Below are positions 38,733 through 63,067 of a stretch of DNA of 64,000 bases, in pieces. Source of the stretch: Methanomassiliicoccales archaeon (GTDB lineage: Archaea > Thermoplasmatota > Thermoplasmata > Methanomassiliicoccales > UBA472); contig JAPKYK010000005.1 in the NCBI GenBank assembly GCA_026394395.1, positions 65,500 through 129,499 on the forward strand, read 5' to 3'. The notes under the pieces were generated by a model, which ran no database searches, was not told where the DNA came from, and worked only from the letters and a program-made list of their open reading frames with translations. The position numbers were made by a program, and so were the translations under genes. Each line of letters opens with the position of its first letter. Within the stretch, counting starts at the first letter, position 1.

Positions 38733-38780
38733 ATAAAAGCAAAATAAACGGCCTTAACGATAGTGCATGGCCTCCCCCAT

Positions 38781-38797
38781 ATGGATATATAATCCAT
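38781..38797. promoter_or_regulatory. palindromic operator-like site 1: ATGGAT-ATATA-ATCCAT
   Basis: Read directly. The inverted repeat has perfect 6-bp arms and a 5-nt spacer. Its centre at 38789 is 31 bp from the centre of site 2. Confidence 0.6.
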
Positions 38798-38811
38798 CCA
38801 ATGAAACCGGT

Positions 38812-38828
38812 ATGGATATCTCATCCAT
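38812..38828. promoter_or_regulatory. palindromic operator-like site 2: ATGGAT-ATCTC-ATCCAT
   Basis: Read directly. The arms are perfect 6-bp repeats. The centre at 38820 is ~20 bp upstream of a TATA-like TTTATTA (38840-38846) and 76 nt upstream of the corrinoid-protein ATG. Confidence 0.6.
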
Positions 38829-38839
38829 CCATCCAAGGG

Positions 38840-38846
38840 TTTATTA
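38840..38846 (+). promoter_or_regulatory. TATA-like element (TTTATTA) of the corrinoid-protein gene
   Basis: It is an AT-rich heptamer ~50 nt upstream of the ATG at 38896. The strong SD AGGAGG lies at 38881-38886. The position fits an archaeal promoter, but the TSS is unknown. Confidence 0.35.
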
Positions 38847-38895
38847 GTCTAAATTGAAATTTGGAGGCAGCAAACTATTTAGGAGGAAATTAAAA

Positions 38896-39531: not shown

Positions 39532-39532
39532 A

Positions 39533-39561
39533 CGGGGCTAACGCCCCCCAATTTTTTTTAT
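39533..39561 (+). terminator. hairpin + oligo-T terminator after the corrinoid gene
   Basis: The hairpin GGGGC-TAAC-GCCCC (39534-39547) is followed by CCAATTTTTTTTATTTT. Confidence 0.55.
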
Positions 39562-39638
39562 TTTATTTTATAATTATTAATATTTAATTATAAAAATAGT
39601 AAGTGCATTTTATTATACCATAAGGTCATCGGTATATC

Positions 39639-40418: not shown

Positions 40419-40531
40419 ACCGACCGTAAGTATGCCCTTCAGAGGCATCCTATCAGAACTGCGACGATGGAAAACCCCGATATTATGGACGAAAGGCCTT
40501 CCAGCCTGCGCAAATTCTATTTATCAGGAAA

Positions 40532-41926
40532 ATGGTCATCATCGGCAATAGGGTGAGGGCGACGAAGGTCTTTTCCAGCCGGGCGATCCTTGGGATGTTG
40601 TTGGGATGGGCCCTGGCCTTCGAAGGGTTCTTCGCCCTTTCTATCGCCAATTCGGCCACCATAGAAGGCATTGGTGGCATCAAAGCCTCGACGTTCTCAT
40701 TGGCCGCCACCCAGCTCGTCTTGTTGGGTGCGTTCATCTCCATCGTCTGGGTTATTAAGGCGGCACTTCCCGAAATCGACAAAAGGATATGGGGAAAGCT
40801 ATTGAGCCTCCTCACCTACCTGGGGATGGCCCTAATAATCCTCGAAGGTTTGATTATCGTATTCAATGCCGGGGATGTGGTAGTAACCAATTTCGGGAAA
40901 GTCTCCAAGATATACATCGTGCTAACTGGGGCGCAGCTATTCGCCTTGGGCGGACTCTCCCTACGGCTGTGGCGGCTGCGAAACGTCCAACCAACCAACT
41001 GGCTGATGGATTCCCTGGGCTCGTTCGTTGCCTCATTGCTCATGGCCGAGGGTTTGATCATTATTGGCATGGCCGCGTACACGAAAATCAAAGGATTGGG
41101 AGGGGTGCTCGAGCAAACGGTCTATAATGCTGGGGTCCAGCTTTTCTTGATCGGTGCGCTCATATTCATTCTTTGGATCATTGTTCAAGACCCATGGTTC
41201 GGTCAGAGGATAAGTAAAATACTAGCCGAAAGGAAGGTTTTCCTTATAGTTGTTGTACTTAGCTGTATTATTGCCATCGAAGGGGTCTTAGCCTCGACAT
41301 GGTCAGGGGATATAACCATCGAGGACGTCGGGGGCATACGCAAGATGTTCATCGTTGCCGGATGTGCCCAGCTCTTTGCATTAGGCGCACTTACACCTCT
41401 TCTGTGGAAGCTCCGATTACGCAAGCTGAATTTGAACTTCTTGCCAGAACTATTCAGTCCATTGGCCATGGTGGTATTGGCTACCGAGGGGGTTGTCGCC
41501 ATGGGACTAGCCGCCAGCACTCGGATCGATGGTATTGGCGGTATCAAGGAGAGCACATTCTTCCTCGCCGGAGAGCAGCTATTGATATTGTCACTAATCG
41601 GCCTATTAGCATTCCTATTGAAGGACAGCTCTATTCTAAGAAAAAGGTCCAGGCGCATAGTGATATCTTTACCGATAATATCCTTAGGCATCGTAGGGTT
41701 AGAGGGGATCGCAGCGACCGTTTTAGCTGCACAAATGTGGATCACGGACTTCAGCAGCGTGAGGGAGCAGTACGTCCTGCTTGTCGGATTACAAATGGCT
41801 ATAATCTCCGTGATAGCCCTGGCATCCTGGGCTCGTTCCGAAGGGATGACCTTTAAGTTCAAGGCCACCGCCACAGGGGCGGCGGCCTTCGTGGTCCTGA
41901 TGCTTCCCATAGCCATTCTGATATGA
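40532..41926 (+). CDS. integral membrane protein built of six tandem 2-TM modules (unrecognised family)
   Basis: 464 aa. A conserved E-G occurs at residues 31, 105, 173, 250, 319 and 391. Each is followed exactly 30 residues later by Q and 42 residues later by W (F in repeat 5). Confidence 0.7.
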   Translation: MVIIGNRVRATKVFSSRAILGMLLGWALAFEGFFALSIANSATIEGIGGIKASTFSLAATQLVLLGAFISIVWVIKAALPEIDKRIWGKLLSLLTYLGMALIILEGLIIVFNAGDVVVTNFGKVSKIYIVLTGAQLFALGGLSLRLWRLRNVQPTNWLMDSLGSFVASLLMAEGLIIIGMAAYTKIKGLGGVLEQTVYNAGVQLFLIGALIFILWIIVQDPWFGQRISKILAERKVFLIVVVLSCIIAIEGVLASTWSGDITIEDVGGIRKMFIVAGCAQLFALGALTPLLWKLRLRKLNLNFLPELFSPLAMVVLATEGVVAMGLAASTRIDGIGGIKESTFFLAGEQLLILSLIGLLAFLLKDSSILRKRSRRIVISLPIISLGIVGLEGIAATVLAAQMWITDFSSVREQYVLLVGLQMAIISVIALASWARSEGMTFKFKATATGAAAFVVLMLPIAILI

Positions 41927-41978
41927 ACAATCAAAGGAAACTTTTATATTCTGTATTTTTTTTCATTGAGCGATAACC

Positions 41979-43955
41979 ATGGCCGAAAGGAAACTTGGGT
42001 TGGGTCTAGACACGGGCGGCACGTACACGGACGCGGCAGTTGTGGACATGTCCACCTTTGAGGTGCTGGCCAAAGCGAAGTCACCCACCACCTACCACGA
42101 CCTGTCCATTGGGGTCCTGGGAGCGATCGACGGCGTCCTGAAATCAGGCAGCTTCGATCCAGCCGACATAATGTTCGTTGGCCTTTCCACAACCTTGGCC
42201 ACGAACTCCATTTTGACTGGTAAGGGGGGCAGGGTCGGTCACATCGCCATCGGGTGGACCCCAATGCAGGAATACAGGTCCGGAGCGGACATGGACGCTT
42301 ACATAAAAGGTGGCCATGGTGTATGGGCCCAGCAGCAGGAACCCCTGGATACCGAGGCGCTCAAGAAGGCCATCACGGAAATGCAACCGAACGTTGATTC
42401 ATTCGTAGTATCAGCCCATTTCAGCGTCTACAATCCCGACCATGAGAAGGAAGCCGCCCGCATGATCAAGGAAATGACCGGGATGCCCGTGGTGATGGGG
42501 CACCAACTAGCCTCCGAGCTGGGTGTGCCGGAAAGGAGCGTGACCGCTATACTGAACGCCCGGCTGCTACCGGTGTTGTCCGAATTCCTGGACGGCGTAG
42601 AGCGTTCCCTACACGAACGTGGAATAACCGCGGCCATACTGGTCTTTAAGGGGGACGGCACCCTGATGAACATCGAAACGGCTAAGGAGCGACCGGTGGA
42701 GACCATACTCTCTGGTCCGGCGGCCAGTCTCATGGGGGGTAAGGTCCTCTGCGACGAGAAGGACTTTATCATGGTGGACATCGGAGGGACGTCCACCGAT
42801 ATCGCCTATCTGGACGACGGTTTCCCCCGCATATCCAAAGAAGGGGCCACCGTGGGCAACTGGCGCACCCGGGTCAAGGCCATCGACATCTGGACCGTGG
42901 GGCTGGGGGGAGATTCGCACGTGATCTCCGACCAGAAGGGAGAGTTCAAGATCGGTCCAGAGAGGGTGGTGCCGTTGGCCATCGCCGCATCCGAATTTCC
43001 AGAAATAAAGGAAAAGATGAAGGCCACCAGTGAGACCAATTACTTCATTCATGTGGAACGGAGCACCGAAAAACTAAGCTCCAAGGAAAAAGAGGTCTAC
43101 GAGTTCGTCAAAACCCATCCGATATGCACCTTGGAGGAGATCAGGGTGGGAGCGCCAGAGGTGTACACGTACCGAGACGTGGTGAAGCGGCTCAAGAACC
43201 GCGGGTTCCTGCAGATGTGTGGGCTGACGCCCACGGACTTTATGCACGTCCAGGGTTTCTTTGACCGTTTCGACATCGAGGCGGCCAGGATGGGCGTGCA
43301 GTTCATGGCCAACTGGGCCAAGATGAACTTCGACGAGTACGTCGAGTCCTTCCACCAAGAAATGATCACCCGGATGGGCGAGGAGATCATGAGGAAGGTC
43401 GTACTGGACGGATCGAGCGAGATGCCCGATTCCCCCGGTTTCAACTACCTTCTGAGAGCGTCGGTCAACGGGAACAGGGGGAGTAACTTGGTGATGAGGA
43501 CCAATATCGGACGTCCTCTGGTAGGCATCGGAGCCCCGGCGCACATCTACATGCCGCCCCTGGAGAAGCGCATGGACGTCAAGGTGATAATACCCAAAGA
43601 ACACGACGTCGGCAACGCCGTGGGAGCGGTCTGCAGCCAGATATCTGAGACCGTTACCGTTCAGGTGTACCCGAACATGGACAACGTCTTCTTCGTGCTC
43701 GGGCCGTTCGGTTCTCCGGTCACCTACAGCCACTTGGAACAGGCCATCAGCAGCGCCCGCTGTCAGGCCGAGGAGTTCGTGAGGAACCGTGTCTACGAGG
43801 CCGGGGCTGAGAACATCCGGGTCCGCAGCGACGTAAACGCGAACAAGTTCTTCGGTGGGGACAACGTGGAAGGGGAGCAGACTGCCTGGGTGGACGTCGT
43901 GGCCCGGGCCACTGGTGACCCCAAGCCCCCGGAAAAGAAGAAGAGCTCACTCTAA
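41979..43955 (+). CDS. hydantoinase/oxoprolinase (HyuA-like) ASKHA-fold ATPase family protein
   Basis: LGLGLDTGGTYTDAAVVD at the N-terminus. The central region PERSVTAILNARLLPV...ETILSGPAASLMGG...IMVDIGGTSTDIAYL...WTVGLGGDS is characteristic of Hydantoinase_A. No HyuB partner is present in the window. Confidence 0.75.
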   Translation: MAERKLGLGLDTGGTYTDAAVVDMSTFEVLAKAKSPTTYHDLSIGVLGAIDGVLKSGSFDPADIMFVGLSTTLATNSILTGKGGRVGHIAIGWTPMQEYRSGADMDAYIKGGHGVWAQQQEPLDTEALKKAITEMQPNVDSFVVSAHFSVYNPDHEKEAARMIKEMTGMPVVMGHQLASELGVPERSVTAILNARLLPVLSEFLDGVERSLHERGITAAILVFKGDGTLMNIETAKERPVETILSGPAASLMGGKVLCDEKDFIMVDIGGTSTDIAYLDDGFPRISKEGATVGNWRTRVKAIDIWTVGLGGDSHVISDQKGEFKIGPERVVPLAIAASEFPEIKEKMKATSETNYFIHVERSTEKLSSKEKEVYEFVKTHPICTLEEIRVGAPEVYTYRDVVKRLKNRGFLQMCGLTPTDFMHVQGFFDRFDIEAARMGVQFMANWAKMNFDEYVESFHQEMITRMGEEIMRKVVLDGSSEMPDSPGFNYLLRASVNGNRGSNLVMRTNIGRPLVGIGAPAHIYMPPLEKRMDVKVIIPKEHDVGNAVGAVCSQISETVTVQVYPNMDNVFFVLGPFGSPVTYSHLEQAISSARCQAEEFVRNRVYEAGAENIRVRSDVNANKFFGGDNVEGEQTAWVDVVARATGDPKPPEKKKSSL

Positions 43956-44155
43956 GGACCGTACTTCGTCGGACCCCAGGCTCAGGGCGCGGGATCGTGC
44001 AATAAGCCCAGCCCCCACCCAAGCGGCGCTTAGAATGCCTGAAGGCACCAGGCAGTTGGCGCGACTATTATTAGTATATTTTAAATACTATATATTATCT
44101 CTAAGAACACATCTGTGAAAGCAAGGGGCTGACGGATACTTTCTTATAATCGTCC

Positions 44156-45250
44156 ATGATATCTGTTTCAATAATAGTTGAAATAGAAGGTGAACTAACG
44201 GCGGACATATTGTTCGTGGCGCTGCAGAGCGGCTTAGACGGTCTTATCGAATACATTTCCCAACATACCTTGACCTGCCTGGTCCCGGCCTTCTTCATCG
44301 CCGGGGCCATTGCTGCGTTCGTCAAGAAAGAGGCTATACTGAAATATTTCGGACCTCAGACCAAGAAATACATCTCCTATCCGATAGCCTCGATCTCCGG
44401 CCTGGTCCTGGCCGTCTGCAGCTGTACAATATTACCGCTCTTCACCGGCATATACAAGAAAGGAAGCGGACTAGGCCCAGCAATAACATTTCTGTTCGCC
44501 GGGCCGGGCATCAACGTGCTGGCGATAATCTATACCGCCCAGGTGCTCGGATACGACATCGGTCTGGCCAGGGCTGTGGCGGCTATCGGGATGTCAGTTA
44601 TAGTCGGCGCCATCATGGCCTGGATATTCAGGAAGGAGCAGCCCAAGGGGGAGCTGAAGATCATCTCCAGTGGTAAGGACAAGCCAAGATGGGTAACTTT
44701 CAGCTTCTTCGTCCTGCTGATACTTATATTAGTGACCGGGGCTTCGCAGCTGGACTGGACCATAAGGCTGGCCGTCGTATACGTGCTGACATTATTGGTC
44801 GCCTACCTGCTCATCTACCACTTCGAAAGGGACGAGGTGACCGATTGGGGAATGGAGACCTGGGACTTGACCAAGAAGATATTTCCCATCCTGCTGATAG
44901 GCACTTTCTTCGTCGGCGTGCTGGCGTACTTCCTGCCCCCGGAGACGTTCCGACCCTATCTCGGAGGCAACTCCGTGCTCGCCAACCTGCTGGCCTCGCT
45001 CCTCGGAGCCATCTTGTACATGCCCACGCTGCTGGAGGTTCCGATCATCGGGACCACCTTCGGTTACACGACTGGGGTCATCGGGGCCGGTCCGGCGCTG
45101 GCGCTCCTGATGTCCGGTCCTACCGTGAGCGCCCCATCCCTATTCGTATTAGGAGGGATCATGGGGTGGAAGAAGACCCTGGCCTATGCTCTGCTGGTGA
45201 TATTAATGTCGACAATGGCCGGCCTAATTTTCGGAGCGCTGGTGGGCTGA
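44156..45250 (+). CDS. COG0701-type permease with vicinal-cysteine CSC motif (ArsP-like family)
   Basis: 364 aa, polytopic, with LAVCSCTILPLF in a TM segment. It is followed by the thioredoxin-like and DGC genes that commonly accompany this permease family. Confidence 0.8.
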   Translation: MISVSIIVEIEGELTADILFVALQSGLDGLIEYISQHTLTCLVPAFFIAGAIAAFVKKEAILKYFGPQTKKYISYPIASISGLVLAVCSCTILPLFTGIYKKGSGLGPAITFLFAGPGINVLAIIYTAQVLGYDIGLARAVAAIGMSVIVGAIMAWIFRKEQPKGELKIISSGKDKPRWVTFSFFVLLILILVTGASQLDWTIRLAVVYVLTLLVAYLLIYHFERDEVTDWGMETWDLTKKIFPILLIGTFFVGVLAYFLPPETFRPYLGGNSVLANLLASLLGAILYMPTLLEVPIIGTTFGYTTGVIGAGPALALLMSGPTVSAPSLFVLGGIMGWKKTLAYALLVILMSTMAGLIFGALVG

Positions 45251-46145: not shown

Positions 46146-47165
46146 TTAGCCCTTTACGGACTTGACCAGTGCGGCCAGATTGTCGTTCGAGATCAGGGCG
46201 GAAAGCCCGCATCCCGGAGAGACCACATCGAAGCCGGCGGCAGCGCAGCGCTTTCCGTGGGCCAGGACGTCCGCAGGGGTTCCCTGCAGCAGCGGGTTGA
46301 CGACACCGACGTTACCGATCAGGGCGGCGCGGTGGTTGACGATCTTGACCGCGTCTTCCGGAACGACCTTCTCCTCGATGGACAGGGCCTTGCATCCGGT
46401 GTTGATCATGTTGTTCAGGATGTCGGTTGTATTGCCGCATATGTGCAGGCAACCAGTGGCTCCCTTGACCGGGGCCAGGCTATCGGCCATGTAAATGCCC
46501 GCGTACTCGTTGAACATGTCCGGGGACAGTAGGTCGGTGCTGGCGGACGGCTCGGACATCTGCACGACATCGGCACCGGCATCGGCCAGGGCTTGGCTGT
46601 ATCCCTTGCAGATGACGTTAGCGGCCTTGACCCAATTGTGCACCAGGGGTGGGTCCACCATGATGTACAGCACGAGGTTCTCGGTGCTGACCAGATGACC
46701 GGCCAAGGTGAACGGTCCGGTGTTACCGGCGATGATCGGGTACTCGTGGCCATACTGGGCCTTCATCTTCTTTACGGCTTCCTGGCAGATGGCGGCGCGG
46801 CCGCTCTTGAGGAACGTGGTAACGTCCATCAGATTGGGCGTGTCCTCCATCTGGTAGGGATGCCCCTTAACCATGGGGGTCCTGTCCTTGCGGCCTGGAT
46901 CCACCTTGGTCACTCCCAAGCTGTCAATCTCAACGGTCAGGCAGAACGGGCACCTGACGGCCTCGAACCCGAAGACCTTGGCCTGTCCGGCACCCAGCTT
47001 GACCATCAGGTCGGCGTTGTAGTGGGCGTCGGGCCAGCTGACACCTAATGCGTCCATCTGTCCCATAGTGGCGCTCTGTGTGAAAACCGCGACCGGCGGC
47101 CTTTCATGCTGCTTGCCCTTCAATGCATCCAGTACTCTCTCCCTTGGAGTTATGTTTTTAGACAA
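46146..47165 (-). CDS. mtaA: methylcobamide:CoM methyltransferase (MtaA/MtbA type, URO-D family)
   Basis: 339 aa. ITPRERVLDALKGKQHERPPV and the Zn-ligand pattern HICGN ... SPGCG. Whether it is the MtaA or MtbA isozyme cannot be told from the sequence by eye. Confidence 0.85.
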   Translation of the reverse strand: MSKNITPRERVLDALKGKQHERPPVAVFTQSATMGQMDALGVSWPDAHYNADLMVKLGAGQAKVFGFEAVRCPFCLTVEIDSLGVTKVDPGRKDRTPMVKGHPYQMEDTPNLMDVTTFLKSGRAAICQEAVKKMKAQYGHEYPIIAGNTGPFTLAGHLVSTENLVLYIMVDPPLVHNWVKAANVICKGYSQALADAGADVVQMSEPSASTDLLSPDMFNEYAGIYMADSLAPVKGATGCLHICGNTTDILNNMINTGCKALSIEEKVVPEDAVKIVNHRAALIGNVGVVNPLLQGTPADVLAHGKRCAAAGFDVVSPGCGLSALISNDNLAALVKSVKG

Positions 47166-47350
47166 ATTTATTCCCCCTATTATCCAGTAGGAATCTAACC
47201 TAGTTTAAGTATCTAGTTTACCGTACATTAAGCTATCGGGGCTTTATGTATTCAAACCATCCTTTAACATTGGTTAATATTTTCCATCTGGCTCGGTGAG
47301 GCCCTATCGAAACAATTGTAAATAATTTAACAAGTGTTCAACCAATCGAC

Positions 47351-48427
47351 TTATACGTTCCCTGACGAACCGTAACGGGCGACGGCCTCCCTAAGAGCAA
47401 TGATGTTCTCCATCGGCGTCTTAAACGGCATCTCGCAGCCCGGTCCTATCATCAGGCCGGGTCCCTTTCCCCAAGAACCGATGATCCCTTGCACTTCCTT
47501 GTCAACCTCCTCCGGCGTCCCCTTGAACAGCAGGAACATGTGGTCTATACCGACCATGACGGCCGTTCTTCCCTTCAATTTGGTGAAGGTCGCCTCGCGG
47601 TCCACCGCCGTTAGATGGAAATGCACGGCGTCCGCGCCTATATCCGGGTATCCGTCGAGGTAAGGAATGGCAGCGCAGTTGTGCGCTATCACCTTCAAAC
47701 CATGGGAATGGAAGCAGTCCACTACCTTCTTCATGTTCTTGAGGTCGAAGCGCTCGATACACTCGAGCGAGCTCATCTCCAGCCCCGAGGTCCCGTTCTC
47801 CATGAAGGCCATCTCTATACCCATCCCTGAAAGGTGCTCGACGTAGGCTTTGGACGATTCCACTAGGACGTTCAGCAGCTGCTCGACCATGCCTGCGTCG
47901 GTGACGGTGGCCATTAGCAGGTTCTCCAACCCCATCACCTCGCTGGCGATGACCATGGGCGAATCGAGGCAACCGAGCACCGCCACCTCGTTTCCCACCC
48001 TTTCGTTCATGAGCCCCGCCGCCCTGAGGGACACGGACCAGAACTCGTCCTTCATGGGGTCCACAGGTTGGATGCGGTCGATGTCCGTCGGTGACTGCAC
48101 CGCGTATCGTTCCACCCGAGGGTAGAAGTCCCGCTCCGGCCACACCCATTGCGTGCCATGGGCCCTGGCCTCCACCAGTATGTCGCCCCAGCCGGCCATG
48201 ACGTTGTCGAAGCCGGTAATCCTCTGGGCCATTATGGCGATGCGAGCGAAGGTCTCAGGGTCGTGAAAGCCCTGGCGCATGGTCAGCCCGGCGGCGTTGA
48301 GCACGGTGCGGGCCGCCCCCAGATGCTGGTACATAATGGGCGGGCGGTCGACCGGTCTCAATGCCAGCGCTTCTTCGAACCTCTCCCTGGGGGTCATGGG
48401 GGGCCTTGATACACTGGAGCCACTCAT
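47351..48427 (-). CDS. divergent URO-D-family (MtaA-like) zinc methyltransferase paralogue
   Basis: 358 aa. MTPRERFEEALALRPVDRPPIMY and H-x-C (IAHNCAA) plus GPGCEMP at the MtaA Zn-ligand positions. Identity to the neighbouring mtaA is low by eye. Confidence 0.75.
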   Translation of the reverse strand: MSGSSVSRPPMTPRERFEEALALRPVDRPPIMYQHLGAARTVLNAAGLTMRQGFHDPETFARIAIMAQRITGFDNVMAGWGDILVEARAHGTQWVWPERDFYPRVERYAVQSPTDIDRIQPVDPMKDEFWSVSLRAAGLMNERVGNEVAVLGCLDSPMVIASEVMGLENLLMATVTDAGMVEQLLNVLVESSKAYVEHLSGMGIEMAFMENGTSGLEMSSLECIERFDLKNMKKVVDCFHSHGLKVIAHNCAAIPYLDGYPDIGADAVHFHLTAVDREATFTKLKGRTAVMVGIDHMFLLFKGTPEEVDKEVQGIIGSWGKGPGLMIGPGCEMPFKTPMENIIALREAVARYGSSGNV

Positions 48428-48442
48428 ATTGTTTTCTGAGCC

Positions 48443-48910
48443 TCAGTCCTTGATCCTCTTTTCCTTCTCGTAGAAGTCGTTGATGATCTCGTAGTCGATC
48501 TTGCGCTCTGACATGAAGATCTTGGTCACGTCCAGTGACGCCGCTCGTACCTGCGGGTCCCACATGCCGTGAACGATGACGTGCACAATCAGCTCACCGC
48601 GGTTCATGAGCGTCCCGTCGAAACGGTTCTGCACCGTCGGGGGTATGTCCAGGTCGATGAGGCTGAAGCTAATGGTGGAGCCTCCTTCGGCAGTAAGGAA
48701 CGATTTGATGTGTCCGATCATGTCCGCTCCTTCCCGGAAGCATTCCATAGTGATTCTATTCAGCAGGTCCAGGACCATGTCCTCGGACTGCTTTCCGTCC
48801 AGCGCGTCAGGGATGTAGAGCCGGAGCCACATGGAGAACTTGCCCAGCTCGTCCGTGGCCCGGTGCGTCAGCAGCTGGCGTTCCTTTTGATCCATTCCTT
48901 CACTCTCCAT
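48443..48910 (-). CDS. hypothetical protein, possibly a detached CobW_C-like domain
   Basis: 155 aa. It overlaps the stop of the upstream COG0523 GTPase gene by 11 nt. The segment IGHIKSFLTAEGGSTISFSL...ELIVHVIVHG loosely resembles the CobW C-terminal domain. The assignment is tentative. Confidence 0.5.
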   Translation of the reverse strand: MESEGMDQKERQLLTHRATDELGKFSMWLRLYIPDALDGKQSEDMVLDLLNRITMECFREGADMIGHIKSFLTAEGGSTISFSLIDLDIPPTVQNRFDGTLMNRGELIVHVIVHGMWDPQVRAASLDVTKIFMSERKIDYEIINDFYEKEKRIKD

Positions 48911-49565
48911 ACTTCTTGTCGAAGCGGTCCTCCGCCTCGGTGAGGTCGTACACCACAGCCTTGCCGTTCACCATGATGTCGGCAACATCCTTCACGCCCT
49001 GCCCGGTTCTTGCAGAACCGTACAGCAGCTTGACCTGGGGGTTCAGGTCCAGGACCAACTTGGTGACCTTGTCCAAGCGCTCGCGGTCCACGGCATCCAC
49101 CTTGTTGATGAGGACGGCGTCCGCCTCTATGATCTGGGTCTCGACCAAGCGGCGCACGTTGTTCATCAGCTTGTCGATGCGTATGGCGTCCACGAAGGTG
49201 ATAATAGGTGCCTGTTCCAGGATCTTGGGCATCTTCTTGACCGTCTCCGCCGCAGCCTGCTTCAGGCCCAGAGGGATGGCCACCCCGGTCGGTTCGACCA
49301 AGATGACGTCCGGCTTGAAGCTCATGTAGATGTTGGTGACTGTGGTGGTCAACGTACCTTGCACCTCACAGCATATGCAGCCGCCGGAGATCTCCATGGT
49401 GTCGATCCCATGGACCTCCATGCACTTGCGGTCGACGTTGATATGGCCGACATCGTTGACGATGGTCGCCACCTTCAAACCCCGCAAATTAAGCTCCTTG
49501 GCCACTTCGATCAGGAAGGTGGTCTTTCCGCTTCCCAAGAAACCGGTAACCTGGGCGATCCTCAT
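48900..49565 (-). CDS. COG0523 (CobW/YjiA-like) G3E-family metallochaperone GTPase, N-domain only
   Basis: P-loop GFLGSGKTT, metal motif GCICC, EPTG and NKVD. At 221 aa it lacks the usual fused C-terminal domain. Confidence 0.8.
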   Translation of the reverse strand: MRIAQVTGFLGSGKTTFLIEVAKELNLRGLKVATIVNDVGHINVDRKCMEVHGIDTMEISGGCICCEVQGTLTTTVTNIYMSFKPDVILVEPTGVAIPLGLKQAAAETVKKMPKILEQAPIITFVDAIRIDKLMNNVRRLVETQIIEADAVLINKVDAVDRERLDKVTKLVLDLNPQVKLLYGSARTGQGVKDVADIMVNGKAVVYDLTEAEDRFDKKYGE

Positions 49566-49722
49566 GTAATCACGCTAGCGGCCTTAACGAACTATAACTA
49601 TAATTCCATTGCCCCTATCCTCGGGCGCCCGAAAAAGACATGCTGGGACGCTTCGGAATTTACCGGTGCTTTGGGAACAGTATTATAAATGAGGCGATGG
49701 CATTCACCCATCGAGGTTTTGC

Positions 49723-51372
49723 ATGGCATTGGGAGTTGCGCTCGACTTGGGCACAAGTGGCTACCGGGGTCACCTGGTCGATCTGAACAAGAAGGGAAAG
49801 ATTCTGGCTACGGCCATCACCATGAGACACCCCCTGCCGGGCGCCAACATCATGGACCATCTGCATTTCTGGATGGAGAACGGGGCCGACGTCGGGCACC
49901 GCATAATCATCGAGACCGTGGACCGATTGATAGGCACCCTGGGCGCCAAGCCCGAGGAGATCGTCCGGGTATCCGTCTGCGGCAACCCCGCCCAGATGTC
50001 CATGTTCGAGAAGATCGAGATACGCGATCTGGCCTACGCCGGCCAGTCCCTGCTCAAGAGGCTGAACGTAAAGGTACCCGAGAGAAAGGCCCACACCATC
50101 AAGGCCGAGGAGCTGGGCATGAGGTCAGTCAGGCAGACCGCCGAGGTCCGCATACCCCCGTCCATCCGTCACGAGATCGGCGCCGACGCCCTGGCCATGA
50201 TCATGAAGACCGGGCTCATGAACAAAAAGGAGACCTGCATGGTCACGGACTACGGCACCAACGCCGAGATGGGACTGTTCTACAAGGGCGAGCTCTTTAC
50301 CGGTTCGGCAGCCGCCGGACCGGCCATGGAAGGGCAGTCCATTGAAATGGGCATGCTGGCCGCTCCCCAGGCATTGTCCGATGTCATCCTGAACGAAGAT
50401 GGCCGCTGGTACAACGTAGTGCTCAACGAAAATCTGCATCCAGTTAAGTCGTCCTTAGTCGATCCGCGCACCGGTCAGGAGCAGCGGCTGGACGGCGTGA
50501 TCGCCCGGGGCATCACCGGCACCGGCACAGTGGCCGCCATGGCCGTGGGGTTGGAGACAGGCATAATCAAGCTGCCCTACATCGACACCCCCGACCGCAA
50601 GATCCACATGACCAATGGCATACACTTCGGCGAAGAGGACGTGCGCGAAGCAGGCAAGGCCATCGGAGCCATCCGCGCCGGGCACCGCACCCTGATCGAA
50701 GAAGTTGGCGTTGCCGACGAAGATGTAAAGACCATGTACATGTGCGGCGCGTCCGGTACGTACGTGGACCCGATAAAGGCTCAGACCGTAGGGCTCATAC
50801 CCAGGGTCCTGGAAAAGACCGTGCAGGCCGGCAACACCTCGCTGATGATGTCCTATGACATACTGGTCGACGATAACGGGCTGGACCACATGCAGGACGT
50901 GGCCAACGCCATATCCAGCAAGCACATAATGTTCGCCACCTGCAAGGTCTTCGAGGACATATACGTCAACGAGATCGCCTACTGGACCGAGGGCATGTCC
51001 ATGGAGATGTACAATGAAATGGTCAAGTACGCTGGATTGAGGCCCCTGCCGGACATAAAGCGCCCCAAAGAGATCGTGCGCTTAGTTTCGTCCGACATAC
51101 CGGTCATCGGCGCCCGCGGTCTGAGGACCCTTGACGACATAGGCGTGTACCTCATCGGCTCCTTCGAGCACTGCGTCGGCTGCAAGAAATGCCAGAAAGA
51201 GTGCCCGGAATGCGCCCTGCAGGTGTCCTCGATGGGTAACAAGAAATTCCAGATCAGGATAAACACCGAGCGCTGCCTGGGAACCGCCTGCAAGAAGTGC
51301 CAGGCCGTCTGTCCGGAGAGCGTGATGAGCTTCGCCGCCCTGAAGATCGTGAAGAAGGGCGAGGACGCATAA
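49723..51372 (+). CDS. ramA: corrinoid protein reductive activase RamA (ASKHA ATPase + C-terminal 2x[4Fe-4S] ferredoxin domain)
   Basis: ALDLGTSGYRGHLVD at the N-terminus. The C-terminal CVGCKKCQKECPECA and CLGTACKKCQAVCPES match the RamA architecture, with ferredoxin motifs at the C-terminus. Confidence 0.85.
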   Translation: MALGVALDLGTSGYRGHLVDLNKKGKILATAITMRHPLPGANIMDHLHFWMENGADVGHRIIIETVDRLIGTLGAKPEEIVRVSVCGNPAQMSMFEKIEIRDLAYAGQSLLKRLNVKVPERKAHTIKAEELGMRSVRQTAEVRIPPSIRHEIGADALAMIMKTGLMNKKETCMVTDYGTNAEMGLFYKGELFTGSAAAGPAMEGQSIEMGMLAAPQALSDVILNEDGRWYNVVLNENLHPVKSSLVDPRTGQEQRLDGVIARGITGTGTVAAMAVGLETGIIKLPYIDTPDRKIHMTNGIHFGEEDVREAGKAIGAIRAGHRTLIEEVGVADEDVKTMYMCGASGTYVDPIKAQTVGLIPRVLEKTVQAGNTSLMMSYDILVDDNGLDHMQDVANAISSKHIMFATCKVFEDIYVNEIAYWTEGMSMEMYNEMVKYAGLRPLPDIKRPKEIVRLVSSDIPVIGARGLRTLDDIGVYLIGSFEHCVGCKKCQKECPECALQVSSMGNKKFQIRINTERCLGTACKKCQAVCPESVMSFAALKIVKKGEDA

Positions 51373-53101: not shown

Positions 53102-53866
53102 TCACACCCCCATAAGATAGGAACGCAATCTCAACGCCAGCTCTACCGACGGGACTGTTAACAGCTGACCCTGGAGCGGTTCAAGTACCACCCCGAACTC
53201 CTCCGAGACCACGATCATGCCTATGCCAGTGTTCAGGCCGTCCGAAGGCAACCGCAGCATGGGCGAGATGAAATCGTCCGAGGCCAGGTGCAACTGCTTG
53301 GCGATCTTGCCGCCCTCTCCGGCCAGGGCCTTCGAACGGACGATCACGGCCGATCCGGGGAAGGGCGAGAACTCCTTGGTCCTTAGCTCCTTCAGCTTGG
53401 CCAACAACCTCTTTCGGTTCTTCTCGTCGAACTCGTAGATCGGATCATAGGCCTGCAGCTCCTGGGCCGGCGAATCGTCCATGATGTCGACTATCTCCAC
53501 CTGCTCCCGGAACCGTTCGATGGCCTCGAGGGGAAGGTCGCAGAGGAACGGTATGGCCGACCTGGTGCCGATTATACGGCGGTGCTCGTCCACACCGTTG
53601 TCCATGAGGGCGTGTATGGCCGCCCCGGGGAAATGTCCGTACTCCTCTTTGCCACAGAGCACCAGCACCCTTATCACTGGATTGGAGACGATGTTGACTA
53701 TGACCTTCTCCAGCCCGATGTTCTCGGTCTTCAATATGCCTTTGATACAGAACAGCTCCGGCGGGACCTCCACGGCTCCCCTGCCGACGATGAGCACGGC
53801 GACAGGCGAACCTTCGTTGCCTATCACGTAATCCCCACTGGCCACTGGCCACACATCTGAATCCAT
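53102..53866 (-). CDS. mtrA: soluble MtrA-like corrinoid-binding protein
   Basis: MDSDVWPVASGDYVIGNEGSPVAVLIV...TENIGLEKVIVNIVSNPVIRVLVLCGKEEYGHFPGAAIHALMDNGVD...RFREQVEIVDI is MtrA-like. The SD GGAGTGG and a TTTTATATATAA element (53899-53910) support the ATG at 53866, not 53956. I see no obvious C-terminal TM anchor. Confidence 0.75.
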   Translation of the reverse strand: MDSDVWPVASGDYVIGNEGSPVAVLIVGRGAVEVPPELFCIKGILKTENIGLEKVIVNIVSNPVIRVLVLCGKEEYGHFPGAAIHALMDNGVDEHRRIIGTRSAIPFLCDLPLEAIERFREQVEIVDIMDDSPAQELQAYDPIYEFDEKNRKRLLAKLKELRTKEFSPFPGSAVIVRSKALAGEGGKIAKQLHLASDDFISPMLRLPSDGLNTGIGMIVVSEEFGVVLEPLQGQLLTVPSVELALRLRSYLMGV

Positions 53867-54030
53867 GACCGCCACTCCAATCACGTATTCAATTTCAATT
53901 ATATATAAAACATCGGAAGGCCAGATGTGACGGCGAATGGGGGTTTTGTCAGACAAAATCCAATTTCGGTGTTAGGGGGATAAGCGATAAATACACCCCG
54001 TTTTGTAATACGGCCCCAGGAAGGGATAAA

Positions 54031-57777: not shown

Positions 57778-57885
57778 AGTGATCCTCAGCTCAAAACTCC
57801 TTTCTATTTTTTCATCTTTTCTGAACATAAGTCCATATATATTACATAATAATGAGTAATTCGCAAATATTTTGCAGGCTAGGCC

Positions 57886-58371
57886 ATGGACACCATTGAC
57901 CTGAAGATCCTCAGGATGCTGCGCAAGAACGCCCGTGAAGGGCTCAGCGCCATAGCCGAACAGCTCGGGGTGTCCAAGGCCACGGTCAGCAGGCGCATAA
58001 CCCGCCTGGAGAAAGATGGTTACGTCAACGCCTACACCATGCAGGTGAACACGGCCAAGATCGGCCTCATGCGCGCCCTCATCGGCCTGCAGATCGTGGG
58101 AGTGCCCCTTGCGGTGGTCATCGACGAGCTGAAGAAATACCCCGGGATCCAGTACGTCTACAAGGTGTTCGGGGACCATTCGCTCATCTGCGAGATCTAC
58201 TCCACCAGCGTGGACAGCCTGTACGACCTCATCCAGGACAAGATCGTCAACATTCCCAACGTGCAGCGGGTGGAGGTCGACATTATCATCGAACGCATTC
58301 CCATCAACGAAGATGCCATGTTCGACCTGGCCATTCCCATGGCGGCGAGCGAGGGCGGGCTGGAGAATTAG
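57886..58371 (+). CDS. Lrp/AsnC-family transcriptional regulator
   Basis: MDTIDLKILRMLRKNAREGLSAIAEQLGVSKATVSRRITRLEKDGYV plus a C-terminal RAM-like domain. Confidence 0.85.
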   Translation: MDTIDLKILRMLRKNAREGLSAIAEQLGVSKATVSRRITRLEKDGYVNAYTMQVNTAKIGLMRALIGLQIVGVPLAVVIDELKKYPGIQYVYKVFGDHSLICEIYSTSVDSLYDLIQDKIVNIPNVQRVEVDIIIERIPINEDAMFDLAIPMAASEGGLEN

Positions 58372-58412: not shown

Positions 58413-59606
58413 ATGGAGCTAAGACCGGCCCCCAAGACCTACACCAAGGACGGGCACCGCGCCGTCGACCCGAAAACTACTTTGAAAAGGGTTGAGCCGA
58501 TGCTGTCCAAGGCCGGCATCACCCGGGTAGCGGACATCACCGACCTCGACCGCATCGGGATCCCTGTCTTCTCGAGCATCCGGCCGGGAGCCAAGGAAGG
58601 CGCCATATCCATCTACAATGGAAAGGGGGCTAGCCGAGAGCAAGCCCGCGTTTCGGCCATCATGGAGGGCATGGAACGCTATTCGGCCGAACCGCAGGAC
58701 GAGAAGGTCCGGCGGGACCTCATGGAGAACATGCTGTCCTCCGAGAACGCCGTAGACCCCCGCACCCTCATCCTCCCCCAGATGATCAACATGCATGTGC
58801 ATTTTCAACCCATAGCCTGGGTCAAGGGCTACGACCTGATCGAGGGCGAGGATATATGGGTGCCAGCTGCGGCTGTCTTCCATCCTTACGAATCGAAGAA
58901 GGACCTTCAGCTCTTCCGCAGCAACACCAACGGATTAGCTTCCGGGAACAACATGGAGGAGGCGGTGCTGCACGCCATGTGCGAGGTGATCGAGCGCGAC
59001 GCCTGGTCCATCTGCGAGGCTAAGCGTCGTCCGAGGGGCGAGATATTGGTCGAGAAGGACTGCCCGGTGGTGAGCGAACTAATGGAAAAGTTTCGTTCAC
59101 AGGGCGTGGAGATCCATCTGAAGGATCTGACCAGCGATATCGGTATACCAACCATAGCCGCGGCCGCCGACGACGTGCGCATGAAGGACCCCGCCCTCCT
59201 GAACTTGGGTGTGGGGACGCATCTCAGTCCGCGGGTGGCGGCCATAAGGGCGTTGACGGAGGTGGCCCAGAGCCGCTGCACACAGATCCACGGCGCGCGG
59301 GAGGACACCACCAAGGCCGACCTGAACCGGACGGTGGGCTATGAGCGCATGAAGCGCCTGAACTCCATGTACTTCGCACCCTCGGAAGAGGTGCGGATGT
59401 CGGAGTTCCCGGAATATGACACAAAGGACCTACTGGAGGACATCGAGGTGGTCCTGGACCACCTGGTCGGATTGGGATTCGAAAAGGTCATCGCCGTGGA
59501 GCTGACCCGGCCCGAGCTGGGTGTACCGGTGGTGCGCATGATCATTCCCGGGATGGAGATTTACGCCATGGACATGGACCGCATGGGGCCAAGGCTGGTG
59601 GCATGA
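58413..59606 (+). CDS. ycaO: YcaO-family ATP-dependent amide activator (McrA thioglycine-forming type)
   Basis: 397 aa. ...VADITDLDRIGIPVFSSIRPGAKEGAISIYNGKGASREQARVSAIMEGMERYSA... It is translationally coupled to tfuA and lies directly upstream of mcr. Confidence 0.9.
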   Translation: MELRPAPKTYTKDGHRAVDPKTTLKRVEPMLSKAGITRVADITDLDRIGIPVFSSIRPGAKEGAISIYNGKGASREQARVSAIMEGMERYSAEPQDEKVRRDLMENMLSSENAVDPRTLILPQMINMHVHFQPIAWVKGYDLIEGEDIWVPAAAVFHPYESKKDLQLFRSNTNGLASGNNMEEAVLHAMCEVIERDAWSICEAKRRPRGEILVEKDCPVVSELMEKFRSQGVEIHLKDLTSDIGIPTIAAAADDVRMKDPALLNLGVGTHLSPRVAAIRALTEVAQSRCTQIHGAREDTTKADLNRTVGYERMKRLNSMYFAPSEEVRMSEFPEYDTKDLLEDIEVVLDHLVGLGFEKVIAVELTRPELGVPVVRMIIPGMEIYAMDMDRMGPRLVA

Positions 59607-60238
59607 CCCGGCCAGTGGTGTTTTTGGGGCCAAGTTTGTCTCTGGACGAGGCCAGAAAGGTCTTGGACGCCGACTACCGCCCTCCGGTGAAGCGGGGGGA
59701 CCTGGGACAGCTGGAAGACGTCAAGATCGTCGGCATCATCGACGGGGTGTTCCTACAGAGCTGCGCTGTAGGGCACCGGGAGATACTGGCGCTCCTGAGG
59801 AAGGGAGTGACGGTGATCGGAGGGGGCAGCATGGGCGCCCTTCGGGCTACGGAGATGCACGATTACGGGATGGTCGGAGTGGGCCAAATCTTCGACATGT
59901 ATTCCCAGGGCGAGATAGAGGGGGACGACGAGGTGGCCTTGGTGTTCGACCCGGAAAGCCTGGAGCCGTTGTCCGAGCCTATGGTCAACATACGTTTCGT
60001 GCTGAACGAGGCTGTGCAGGTTAAAGTTATATCCACAGAGCAAAAGGACGACCTCCTGAGAAAGCTGCGGTCCGTATACTATCCCCGGCGCACGGTGAGG
60101 ACGTTCCTGAGTATCGCCATGTCGACCTTGAAGGGTGAGGATACAATACGGTTCACTGACTTTTTTAAGGATAATTACCGAGATATTAAAAAGCAGGACG
60201 CAATAACCGTCCTAAAATCAATCAAAAAGCGAGTCTAA
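59603..60238 (+). CDS. tfuA: TfuA-like protein (YcaO partner)
   Basis: VVFLGPSLSLDEARKVLDADYRPPVKRGDL...IVGIIDGVF...VGHREILALLRKGVTVIGGGSMGALRA. It overlaps ycaO by ATGA. Confidence 0.9.
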   Translation: MTRPVVFLGPSLSLDEARKVLDADYRPPVKRGDLGQLEDVKIVGIIDGVFLQSCAVGHREILALLRKGVTVIGGGSMGALRATEMHDYGMVGVGQIFDMYSQGEIEGDDEVALVFDPESLEPLSEPMVNIRFVLNEAVQVKVISTEQKDDLLRKLRSVYYPRRTVRTFLSIAMSTLKGEDTIRFTDFFKDNYRDIKKQDAITVLKSIKKRV

Positions 60239-60390
60239 ACGACGATTCGATTTAATATTCGTTCATCACAAAAAAATTAACGAACTTAATTATTGTTTAT
60301 ATTTAATATTTTGAATTTTAAAAAATTTTTGGGCGTTAAAACGAGTGCGTTTTCATCTGGGAAAGTACAAAAATTAAGCTATTGTTTAAC

Positions 60391-60411
60391 ATGGATGGAT
60401 AATCCATCCAT
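60391..60411. promoter_or_regulatory. perfect 21-bp palindrome ATGGATGGAT-A-ATCCATCCAT upstream of mcrB (contains ATGGAT-N5-ATCCAT)
   Basis: Read directly. The arms are 10 bp. The centre at 60401 is ~19 bp upstream of a TATA-like TTATATT (60420-60426) and 127 nt upstream of the mcrB ATG. Confidence 0.6.
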
Positions 60412-60419
60412 CATCAAGC

Positions 60420-60426
60420 TTATATT
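60420..60426 (+). promoter_or_regulatory. TATA-like element (TTATATT) of the mcr operon (candidate)
   Basis: It is an AT-rich heptamer ~100 nt upstream of the mcrB ATG. A second AT-rich candidate exists at ~60296-60310. The TSS is unknown. Confidence 0.3.
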
Positions 60427-60527
60427 CTAACGCAACCTTCTCGAGTCCGCAAGGGGAGCCGGTTTTCTTGAGTGCAATGCAAGCGCATCTGCTCGAGAGG
60501 ACCGAGTTATTGAAAAGGAGGTAAAAA

Positions 60528-61859
60528 ATGGCAAAATACAAGGACAAAGTGGACTTGTATGACGACAGAGGCAAACTGATTGAGAAGGATGTGCCTCTCG
60601 AAGCAATAAGTCCGTTAAACAACGCCGCCATTAAGCGAACCATCTCTCTGACGAAGAGGACGATCGCAGTCAACCTCGAGGGTATTGAGAAAGGTCTCAA
60701 GACCGGAGCGGTTGGCGGATTGAACATCAACAACAGAAAGCTGGACCTCGCAGTAGTGGCGAACGCTGGCAAGTTGGAAAAGTTGATCAGGGATAAGATC
60801 AAAGTCTTGAAGGACGACGACACCGAGATCAAGACCTTGGCGGAAGGCAAGAGAATGATCGTTACTTGCCCCTCGGCCAGGATCGACTCGGGTGCTGAAT
60901 ACACCACTGGATTCACCGCCGTCGCTGCCGCGGTCACTGAGGCCATCATCGACACGTTCAACGTGGACATGTTCGAGGCCTCGATGGTCAAGGCCGCAGT
61001 CTGGGGGAGATATCCGCAGACCATCAACATGTTGGGATCGAACCTCAGGACAATCCTGGACGTTCCCCAGCTAAATGAAGGTACCGGTTACGCCCTCAGG
61101 AACATCACGGCCAACCACATAGTAATGCTGACCGACAGGAACGCCATGAACGCTGCCGCCCTATCCGCTATCTACGAGACCGTCGCGGCCTACGAGATGG
61201 GAGATGCGATCGGCAACTTCGAGAGAACGCACCTGTTGTCCCTGGCTTATCAGGGCCTGAACGCCAACAACCTGGTCTACAGCTGGGTCAAGGAGAACGG
61301 CAAGACCGGCACCGTCGGTGATGTCGTCGCCTCAATGGTTGGCAGGGCTTTGGAAGACAAGGTCATCAGGAAAGGAAAGAAGTTCCCATCCGGATTCGTT
61401 GAATACAACTGCACTGACTTCCCGCTGTGGAACGCATACACCTCCGCTGGTATGCTGGCGGCAATCTGTGTGAACATCGGGGCCGCAAGGGCCGCGCAGG
61501 GTATCCCGTCCACCATCTTGTACTACAACGACCTGGTAGAGCACGAGACCAGCCTGCCCGGTGTAGACTATGGCAGGGCCATGGGTACATCCGTCGGTAT
61601 GTCCTTCTTCAGCCACTCCATCTATGGTGGTGGCGGTCCGGGACTGTTCCACGGAAACCACGTGGTCACGAGACATGCGAAGGGAACCGTCAATCCCGTC
61701 ATCGCCGCCGGGTGCGCCTTGGACGCTGGTACCCAGTACTTCAGCGCTGAGAACACCTCCCTGGTAATGAAGGAAGTGTTCGGTACCGTCCCAGAGTTCA
61801 ACAGCCCGATGAAGATGGTCGGTAAGGAGGCCAAGAAGTGGAAGGAACAGGGTGCTTGA
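60528..61859 (+). CDS. mcrB: methyl-coenzyme M reductase beta subunit
   Basis: [60 protein letters not shown]... is full-length McrB (443 aa). The SD is AAGGAGGT. Confidence 0.97.
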
Positions 61860-61860
61860 A

Positions 61861-62283
61861 ATGAATAAGCCTGCCTCAGAAGAGGTACCCCTGCCCGAGA
61901 TCAAAATATTCCCGGAGCGATTGTTGCTGGCGGACACCACGGAGGTACTGTTGAACAAACTGTACGCCGTGAAGAACGTCAGAAGGATCAACGTTCAAGG
62001 CGAGGGCCTGCCCGCTATAATGAAGGCCGGTCCCGGCACTGGTGGTCCGGTAAATCATCCGGAGCGTAAGATGATCAAGGTCAAGGGAGAGGATTTGGAG
62101 CTTACGGTTCTAGTCGGTAACATTTTCGTTGAGATATGTGACATCGATTTTGTTCCCCAGGCTCTGAAAGACATCGAAGTGGTGTGCAAAGATGTACTCC
62201 CCTTCAGTTTCACTCTGGAGGTAGGCAGATATTCAAAGTTCAAGCGAACTGTATCCGATTATCAAAAAGGATTGGTGAATTAA
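61861..62283 (+). CDS. mcrD: methyl-coenzyme M reductase operon protein D
   Basis: ...[38 protein letters not shown]...[21 protein letters not shown] prefer the ATG at 61861; the alternative is a GTG at 61852 that overlaps mcrB. Confidence 0.9.
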
Positions 62284-62284
62284 C

Positions 62285-63067
62285 ATGGCTAAGACAAAGT
62301 ACAAAGCACAATTCTATCCTGGCACCACCCTGCCCGCCAAGAACAGGCGACGCTTCATGGACCCCAGCGTAAAGCTGGAGAAGCTCCGCGACATTCCGAT
62401 GGACGATGTGGTCAAGATCTTGGGTCACAGGACCCCCGGTTCCGACTACGCCACCATCCACCCGCCGCTGGACGAGGGCAACGAGCCCAAGTGCCCCATC
62501 AGGGCCTTGGTCGAGCCCATAGAGGGTGCGAAGAAAGGAGACAGGATCAGGTACGTTCAGTTCACTGACTCCGTATACTGGGCCCCCATAATCCCCTACG
62601 TGAGGGCGCAGATGTATATGTGGAGATACAGAGGAATTGATACCGGTACCCTGTCCGGAAGGCAGATCATCGAGATGAGGGAGAGGGACGTCGAAAAGGT
62701 GGCCAAGGAACTCATCGACAACGAAACCTTTGATACCGCAAGAACCGGCATCAGGGGTGCCACCGTGCACGGCCACGCCGTAAGGTTGGACCAGAACGGT
62801 TTGATGTTCGATGCCTGGCAGCGGTTCCGCTGGAACGCTAAGAAGGGCGAGGTCGAATACGTGAAAGACCAGGTCGGTGTCCCGCTGGACAAGCCGGTCC
62901 CGGTCGGAAAGCCTATGCCCGAGAAGTGGTTGAAGGAGCACACCACCATGTTCCGCGCCGACGGTGTGGACATGAGGGAGGACGAGGAGGTCATGAGACA
63001 GAATCTCAGGATACACACCCTCAGAACCAAGTGCGGCTTCAAGCCCTTCGATGTCAAGGAGGACTAA
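62285..63067 (+). CDS. mcrG: methyl-coenzyme M reductase gamma subunit
   Basis: [58 protein letters not shown]..., 260 aa. Confidence 0.97.

Follow-up and report, generated by a model that had tools for sequence, protein, structure and literature searches.

A conserved GGAT palindrome upstream of mcrBDGA in Methanomassiliicoccales most likely serves to dock a regulator of methane-forming genes not described before

Several archaeal transcription factors bind dyad sites located just upstream of the B recognition element (BRE) and TATA box, including Ptr2 of Methanocaldococcus jannaschii, whose targets carry paired sites, and TFB-RF1 (PF1088) of Pyrococcus furiosus. The Thermococcales regulators SurR, TrmBL1, and Tgr have a dual action that depends on the position of their sites, and Methanosarcina, a methylotrophic methanogen, has factors dedicated to its corrinoid and methyltransferase operons, the Msr family and MreA. 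We know of no site that Msr or MreA shares with mcr, which encodes methyl-coenzyme M reductase (MCR), and how methanogens control the amount of MCR is, to our knowledge, poorly understood. Nor do we know of any regulator described so far in the Methanomassiliicoccales, the seventh order of methanogens, whose members are methylotrophs that depend on H2 and are common in wetlands and in the guts of humans, ruminants, and termites. Here we analyzed a stretch of 64,000 nucleotides from a member of this order (contig JAPKYK010000005.1, positions 65,500 to 129,499; referred to as the window), in which a perfect 21-bp palindrome precedes mcrB. Most likely, this palindrome serves as a landing site for a regulator, not described so far, that coordinates the genes of methane formation. 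The methyltransferase genes of M. luminyensis were previously found to be expressed according to substrate, and an unknown regulatory network was inferred in the same study, in which the Methanosarcina regulators of methyl-transfer genes are cited (PMC5688252).

The palindrome, ATGGATGGAT-A-ATCCATCCAT (ATGGATGGATAATCCATCCAT), occupies positions 60391 to 60411 of the window, is assigned to neither strand, and has 10-bp arms around a single A. It lies 117 nt before mcrB, within the 289-bp gap between tfuA and mcrB, and the core of the predicted binding site spans 60392 to 60410. A preliminary description made from the letters of the window had pointed it out, and both the sequence and the coordinates given there are exact. 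Perfect palindromes with arms of 10 bp or longer and spacers no longer than 5 bp occurred once in the window, compared to 0.45 times in shuffled sequences that keep the local composition. By itself the palindrome is within chance, and what exceeds chance is the sharing of its motif and its conservation. Exact matches to ATGGAT-N5-ATCCAT, a motif with a 6+5+6 layout, were found at 38781, 38812, 60391, and 60395; the expected number was 0.28, and none of 100 shuffled sequences reached four. These counts bear out the earlier claim that the palindrome carries the same motif as two sites at 38781 and 38812, which precede a corrinoid protein gene. The preliminary description did not mention that the mcr palindrome contains the motif twice, in registers offset by 4 bp. 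When the window was scored with a weight matrix trained solely on the sites of other genomes, its own sites being excluded, the top score was that of 60392 (31.8 bits), followed by 38782 (30.0 bits) and 38813 (27.2 bits). No other independent place in the 64-kb window scored above approximately 10 bits, and peaks in shuffled sequences were mostly between 9 and 15 bits, with two at 20 to 25 bits. In general, the motif takes the form TGGAT-N5-ATCCATCCA; when fully symmetric, it reads TGGATGGA-N3-TCCATCCA.

Conservation of the palindrome was examined in relatives. A scan of species-representative genomes with McrB yielded 30 loci, 29 from Methanomassiliicoccales, with McrB identities of 62 to 90%, and the regions upstream of mcr from the window and 27 relatives were aligned (n = 28). 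Outside the family, L115, L117, and L119 stop short of mcrB and gave no mcr promoter, and that of L120 is described below. The symmetric 19-mer core (8-3-8) was intact in 27 of the 28 mcr promoters from Methanomassiliicoccaceae, down to a McrB identity of 67%, and the frame TGGAT-N9-ATCCA was intact in the same number, whereas the two individual 6+5+6 registers were intact in only 20 and 17 promoters. The flanks of the mcr sites diverge, and within the core the three central bases alone vary. Because the 8-3-8 core and the outer frame are kept in nearly all promoters and the single registers in fewer, the whole 19-mer is under selection at mcr. This is the recurrence in relatives on which the preliminary description had staked its proposal. 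Its suggestion that the outer quartets are an extra of the mcr site did not hold: the promoter-proximal ATCCATCCA is present in nearly every site, and at mcr it is the entire 19-mer that is conserved.

The position of the core relative to the other conserved elements of the mcr promoter was equally constant. Four noncoding blocks are conserved among the 28 promoters: (i) the core itself; (ii) ATCAAgCTTAtAt, which lies directly 3' of the core and is nearly invariant; (iii) GCAAGGGGnaCcGnTTTTC; and (iv) the Shine-Dalgarno region. An archaeal TATA box is centered approximately 26 to 27 bp before the start site, and the BRE lies just upstream of the TATA box. Because this geometry fits, block (ii) is predicted to comprise the BRE (CATCAAGC, 60412 to 60419, + strand) and the TATA box (TTATATTC, 60420 to 60427, + strand), and block (iii) to mark the start of the transcript near 60449. 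The predicted mcrBDGA transcription start region, the leader start GCAAGGGG (60449 to 60456, + strand), is supported by its conservation and its fixed spacing: it begins 29 nt from the start of the TATA box and is kept across the order, with the form CAAGGGGA in L029 and L120. In 26 of the 28 promoters, GCAAGG follows the end of the site at 39 to 40 nt, across a stretch of divergent sequence. Between GCAAGG and the ATG the distance is variable, ranging from 67 to 108 nt. Counted from the predicted start, the palindrome would occupy approximately -57 to -39, with its center at -48, and would adjoin the BRE. At mcr, at the corrinoid genes, and at other genes alike, the site ends 8 to 9 nt before the conserved TATA-like box. 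The preliminary description had measured 19 bp from the center of the palindrome (60401) to TTATATT (60420) and had noted a mirrored spacing at the second corrinoid site; the first distance is as claimed, and the second is 18 to 20 bp to TTTATTAG (38840), depending on the frame. A position upstream of the BRE and TATA box is typical of archaeal activator sites and is the one used by Ptr2 and TFB-RF1. The palindrome is thus probably a protein-binding site of the mcrBDGA promoter, next to the BRE and TATA box, whose motif is shared with corrinoid genes and the gene of a candidate regulator.

The corrinoid protein gene of the window (38896 to 39531; product MCX6651494.1, B12 binding) is preceded by two such sites on the + strand. 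Site 1 (ATGGATATATAATCCATCCAA, 38781 to 38801) is complete in its promoter-proximal half, TCCATCCA, but only partial in the distal one, TGGATATA, and is identical to the mcr palindrome at 18 of 21 positions. Site 2 (ATGGATATCTCATCCATCCAT, 38812 to 38832) is followed after 8 nt by the TATA-like TTTATTAG (38840 to 38847), and GCAAAC at 38870 occupies the place that GCAAGGGG has at mcr, with the predicted transcription start site (TSS) of the corrinoid gene nearby. Site 1 is conserved in the closest orthologous loci (L033 to L036), as is the spacing of 31 bp between the centers of the two sites. This pairing at three helical turns suggests cooperative binding and resembles that of the sites at Ptr2 targets. 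A metagenome scan with the corrinoid protein of the window gave 80 loci. Of these, 25 share 61% identity or more; among them, exact TGGAT-N5-ATCCA was present no more than 200 nt upstream in 20 and with one mismatch in 4; L054 lacked it. Paralogues at 44 to 54% identity also bear the motif, some in the full mcr type (e.g., TGGATGGATAATCCATCCA in L089), and in relatives it precedes the corrinoid protein genes of at least four paralogue groups at the same promoter position. When anchored on the proximal CCA, the corrinoid promoters have the consensus TGGATg....atCCATCCA, then 8 nt (tAAAAGcc), then TTTAt, which is the geometry found at mcr.

Across the window and all loci (1.08 Mb), exact TGGAT-N5-ATCCA was found at 85 distinct places, compared to approximately 1 expected by an estimate from its ten fixed bases. 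Nearly all of these matches lie 8 to 9 nt before a TATA-like box and precede mcrB or a corrinoid gene by 65 to 120 nt, or else are at the candidate regulator gene described below, and the motif is conserved over genomes with GC contents of 41 to 64%. The preliminary description proposed a shared operator that ties MCR to a single methyl-transfer locus. That the motif is shared stands, but its range is wider than a single locus and takes in several paralogue groups and the regulator gene. Within the window, the GGAT motif was not found at the genes located between the corrinoid locus and mcr (46146 to 51372 and 53102 to 53956) that encode two URO-D proteins (methyltransferase 2, MT2; MtaA/MtbA-like), a RACo/RamA-like corrinoid activase, and an MtrA-like protein.

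At least 17 relatives have a second conserved site, which a scan of all loci with the 19-mer placed 6.8 to 9 kb downstream of mcrB. This site has the form (A)TGGATGGAT-ATATA-ATCCATCCAT, which in L014 is a perfect 25-bp palindrome, and it lies between atwA (MCR component A2; TIGR03269, 739 bits) and a divergent gene for a protein composed of a winged helix-turn-helix (wHTH), DUF4443, and DUF2111. The wHTH-DUF4443-DUF2111 gene is syntenic downstream of mcr in 19 relatives. In the genome of the window it lies just past the window end, and its product, MCX6651525.1, is eight accession numbers after McrB (MCX6651517.1). An identical protein is encoded by L118, which was used in place of the DNA past the end of the window. 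L118 shares its sequencing run with L031, the contig identical to the window at mcr; the self-promoter in L118 reads ATATTTAT-GGATGGATTATATATCCATCC-cata-ATG. In L014, the TATA-like GTTTAAAT abuts the self-site and the ATG follows the site by 1 nt. Because this places the center of the TATA box approximately 27 nt from the ATG, a leaderless regulator mRNA fits. The layout of TATA box, site, and ATG was present in six further lineages with GC contents of 41 to 57%: L014, L115/L117 (GC, 49%), L116 (GC, 41%), L119 (Methanomethylophilaceae; TTTAAAAG-gt-TGGATGCTCTATCCAACCA-tc-ATG), L120 (Methanarcanum-like; TGGAT-N9-ATCCA), and L121 ("Ca. M. intestinalis"; a degenerate form). Every lineage examined except L113 has the GGAT motif at the DUF2111 regulator gene. 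Whether the site also controls atwA is uncertain, as it is off the standard distance in most lineages. On balance, the synteny with mcr and the site at its own gene favor the wHTH-DUF4443-DUF2111 protein as the one that binds the GGAT site.

The candidate protein has approximately 320 amino acids (aa), beginning with a PH0730-like/CggR-like winged helix (Pfam matches CggR_N and PH0730-like_N) followed by DUF4443 and DUF2111. It matched no NCBIfam model, and a C-terminal SorC-type sugar-phosphate effector domain was not found in it. The closest solved structure by sequence is that of the hypothetical protein PH0730 of Pyrococcus horikoshii (2P8T; phmmer E = 1e-14), the likeness covering residues 30 to 190, approximately; PH0730 itself has neither DUF2111 nor a known function. 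The AlphaFold model of the candidate had a predicted local distance difference test score of 84.8, and PH0730 was again its best overall match in Foldseek (E = 8e-11). The predicted winged helix superposes on the operator-bound DNA-binding domain of CggR (7OYK) with a root mean square deviation of 0.9 to 1.0 A over 64 residues. The candidate thus shares the winged helix of the SorC/CggR regulators and differs from them in lacking their effector domain. Foldseek also gave weaker matches to IclR-type regulators and to GAF domains, which hints that part of the protein binds a ligand. Little or no variation was seen among 34 homologues in GEGSxRTILDKM, the predicted recognition-helix region. Homologues with all three domains fall into no more than about ten clusters at 50% identity, and all those with a named source are from Methanomassiliicoccales; a far larger set elsewhere consists of wHTH-plus-DUF4443 proteins of approximately 200 aa.

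As the best reading of these observations, we propose the following mechanism. The candidate protein, either dimeric or as two paired dimers, would bind GGAT/ATCC quartets. Where the site borders the upstream edge of the BRE, as at mcr and the corrinoid genes, the bound protein would aid the recruitment of TFB and the TATA-binding protein (TBP) and activate transcription. At the gene of the regulator itself, where the site takes up the interval from the TATA box to the ATG, it would block RNA polymerase and repress its own synthesis. The C-terminal domains probably sense a small molecule. We lean slightly toward activation rather than repression as the effect of the bound protein at mcr. A bolder version, which we put forward tentatively, is that methane formation in Methanomassiliicoccales has the candidate as its master regulator. 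With its C-terminal domains, the protein would sense a metabolite specific to methanogenesis (for example, a corrinoid, F430, or a species of coenzyme M or coenzyme B); it would match MCR levels to the methyl-transfer systems that supply the enzyme, and it would limit its own synthesis. The variable spacing of the quartets, if they are indeed what the protein reads, would call for binding of an unusual kind, for instance by a tetramer that reads up to four quartets.

The known systems differ from this one in several respects. The candidate is neither an Lrp-family nor a TFB-RF1-type protein, its GGAT quartets have variable spacing, and activation is proposed here from the position of the site. 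As with SurR, TrmBL1, and Tgr, the motif stands either upstream or downstream of the TATA box; unlike in those cases, the targets belong to methanogenesis and not to sugar or redox metabolism, and the protein family and motif are unrelated. The Methanosarcina Msr proteins (ArsR plus DUF1724) and MreA (TrmB) belong to other families and are not known in this order as a syntenic partner of mcr and atwA.

A different way to read the same geometry is that a dimeric repressor sits beside the BRE, hinders TFB and TBP, and shuts down mcr and the methyl-transfer genes together, for example when H2 or substrate is missing or under oxidative stress. The proximal edge of the site is only 1 to 2 bp from the predicted BRE, the placement of the motif between TATA box and ATG of the regulator gene is clearly repressive, and a different palindrome lies 2 nt from the TATA box in L029, all of which would suit a repressor. 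Known archaeal repressors, however, usually cover the BRE and TATA box or the start site, and the mcr site overlaps neither the TATA box nor the predicted start. Repression as the default state would also be less natural for genes that are indispensable and highly expressed in an obligate methanogen. We consider such a repressor unlikely, and the term "operator" in the preliminary description, with the repression that it implies, does not suit a site that adjoins the BRE and TATA box on their upstream side rather than covering them.

It is somewhat less likely still that the GGAT site is bound by another protein, such as the Lrp/AsnC protein encoded at 57886 to 58371, the ArsR-like winged-helix protein encoded at 39639 to 40418, or an unlinked factor. 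More than 20 relatives keep the Lrp gene in synteny with mcr, and the 5-5-5 layout of TGGAT-N5-ATCCA resembles the 15-bp sites of Lrp-type proteins. The Lrp gene, however, has a palindrome of its own, GCAAA-TAT-TTTGC (57863 to 57875), which is located 10 nt before its start codon, is conserved in relatives as TGCAA-N5-TTGCA, and is probably the Lrp self-operator; no GGAT site was found in the region upstream of this gene. On the basis of this different self-palindrome, the Lrp/AsnC neighbor was rejected as the binder. The ArsR-like gene is kept beside the closest corrinoid orthologues, but it accompanies only one corrinoid paralogue group and the motif occurs at several, so it was rejected as a global factor. 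The presence of the GGAT motif at the DUF2111 regulator gene in all of the lineages but one argues instead for the wHTH-DUF4443-DUF2111 protein.

A reading at the RNA level was also weighed, in which the palindrome is a hairpin in a long 5' untranslated region (UTR) transcribed from the AT-rich 60296 to 60310 region. The arms could form a 9-bp stem (-13 kcal/mol, z = -3.3), and the region upstream is AT rich with TATA-like strings in all relatives. Both arms are nevertheless conserved in sequence, beyond what mere pairing would require, and the pair flanking the core varies without compensation, being A/T in 17 sequences and AA, CA, TT, CT, or AC in 7 others. The corrinoid sites hold just a 5-bp complementary core, with the second quartet asymmetric, and at unrelated genes the element stands at a fixed distance from, and upstream of, the TATA box. 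At the regulator gene it precedes the start codon of what is probably a leaderless mRNA. The rigid spacing of site, TATA box, and leader at mcr disfavors a TSS far upstream. A hairpin that lies nearby in the mcr 5' UTR (60460 to 60504) does covary, and the palindrome does not. A permissive Rfam scan of 60200 to 60560 returned only noise (E of at least 0.2, scores far under the gathering thresholds). The pattern of conservation and the position of the element led us to reject the RNA hairpin, which we regard as very improbable. That the palindrome is a functionless product of chance or of ATGG tetranucleotide slippage has a negligible probability: one such palindrome per 64 kb is expectable, but this one is conserved in orthologous and paralogous promoters of genomes with GC contents of 41 to 64%, and its matrix score is far above the remainder of the window.

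Several observations weigh against a DUF2111 protein that activates mcr from the palindrome. Its assignment as the regulator is a putative one, drawn from synteny and the self-site alone, and the position next to the BRE would be equally compatible with interference with TFB. A second promoter may exist in the AT-rich 60270 to 60330 region. The sites themselves tolerate register shifts of 4 bp, which is unexpected for a rigid dimer, and the gap between the arms is 1 nt at mcr and 5 nt at the regulator gene, with L120 having only TGGAT-N9-ATCCA. Three genomes depart from the general pattern. In L029, a divergent member of the Methanomassiliicoccaceae (McrB identity, 62%), the mcr promoter lacks a GGAT site and has a perfect palindrome, TGGTGATAATCACCA (9830 to 9850), 2 nt upstream of the TATA box; no regulator homologue was found within 11 kb downstream. 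L120 retains the regulator and its self-site, yet its mcr promoter has no GGAT site. Its place before the mcr TATA box is taken by the perfect palindrome TAACAAT-CGATA-ATTGTTA (17479 to 17497), which suggests the motif of a second regulator. Because of this replacement in L120, the link to mcr is perhaps a feature of most Methanomassiliicoccaceae. The self-site and corrinoid-gene sites are spread more widely than the mcr link. The candidate AACAAT-N5-ATTGTT was rejected as a second shared motif, as the full palindrome is essentially confined to L120 and half-sites occur elsewhere. L113 (GC, 64%) has a regulator homologue without a canonical site nearby. A corrinoid promoter of L113 (16250 to 16285, minus strand) carries the variant GTGGGAT-GGCTT-ATCCCACCA, followed by 8 nt and TTTATTAA; the variant is at the usual position and has GGGAT in place of GGAT.

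The motif ties together mcr, several corrinoid methyl-transfer operons, and an uncharacterized DNA-binding protein in the mcr/atwA marker cluster, so that the outcome is a concrete regulon with a named candidate protein. If confirmed, this would give the DUF4443 and DUF2111 domains a function, offer a handle on the methane output of gut methanogens, and provide a native regulated promoter for genetic tools in the order. We take COG4029 to be equivalent to DUF2111. A COG4029 member, MMP0337, is listed among methanogen-specific proteins (PMC1852104). The mcr/atwA marker cluster of approximately 16 kb is described in PMC4153887, in which term searches turned up nothing on the palindrome element or the regulator; in its Table 5, AtwA of "Ca. 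M. intestinalis" is AGN26005, and the candidate of this organism, AGN26004.1, is one accession before it. In the searchable literature we found no description of DUF2111, of DUF4443, of a TSS in Methanomassiliicoccales, or of the motif in methanogens.

The remaining features of the region concern the genes around the palindrome. The Lrp/AsnC gene, identified from the list of open reading frames, is the first of the genes upstream of mcr and heads the ycaO (58413 to 59606) and tfuA (59603 to 60238) genes for McrA thioglycine formation, tfuA being the last gene before mcrB. On the + strand, mcrB (60528 to 61859; Shine-Dalgarno sequence GGAGG at 60517 to 60521), also taken from this list, is followed by mcrD (61852 to 62283), mcrG (62285 to 63067), and the start of mcrA. 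Their products matched Pfam MCR_beta, MCR_D, MCR_gamma, and MCR_alpha, respectively, on the identical contig L031. The hairpin of the mcr 5' UTR at 60460 to 60504 (+ strand) has a minimum free energy of -26.6 kcal/mol (z = -2.7). RNAalifold on 18 relatives predicted 12 pairs, 10 of them with compensatory changes, and the hairpin possibly serves mRNA stability or translation control.

Just 5' of the palindrome, ATTGTTTAAC (60381 to 60390, + strand) belongs to a block, G-TTTAa, that is kept in the alignment; it is possibly one half-site of a distinct second element. The hexamer CGTTAA/TTAACG occurs near the GGAT sites of the window, at 60334 to 60339 and 38754 to 38759. It was present in 39 of 81 unique 90-nt 5' flanks of GGAT sites, compared to 5.2 expected, an excess that is only suggestive because the flanks are phylogenetically related.

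The corrinoid protein of the window is of the pyl_corrinoid type, with scores under every equivalog cutoff. Its gene opens a locus (38896 to 45250) that continues with genes for an ArsR-like winged-helix/DUF7347 protein, a 464-aa protein that had no Pfam or NCBIfam match, a hydantoinase/MutL-like ATPase, and an ArsP permease. L033 to L037 keep the first four of these together, and the locus may represent an uncharacterized methyl-transfer system.

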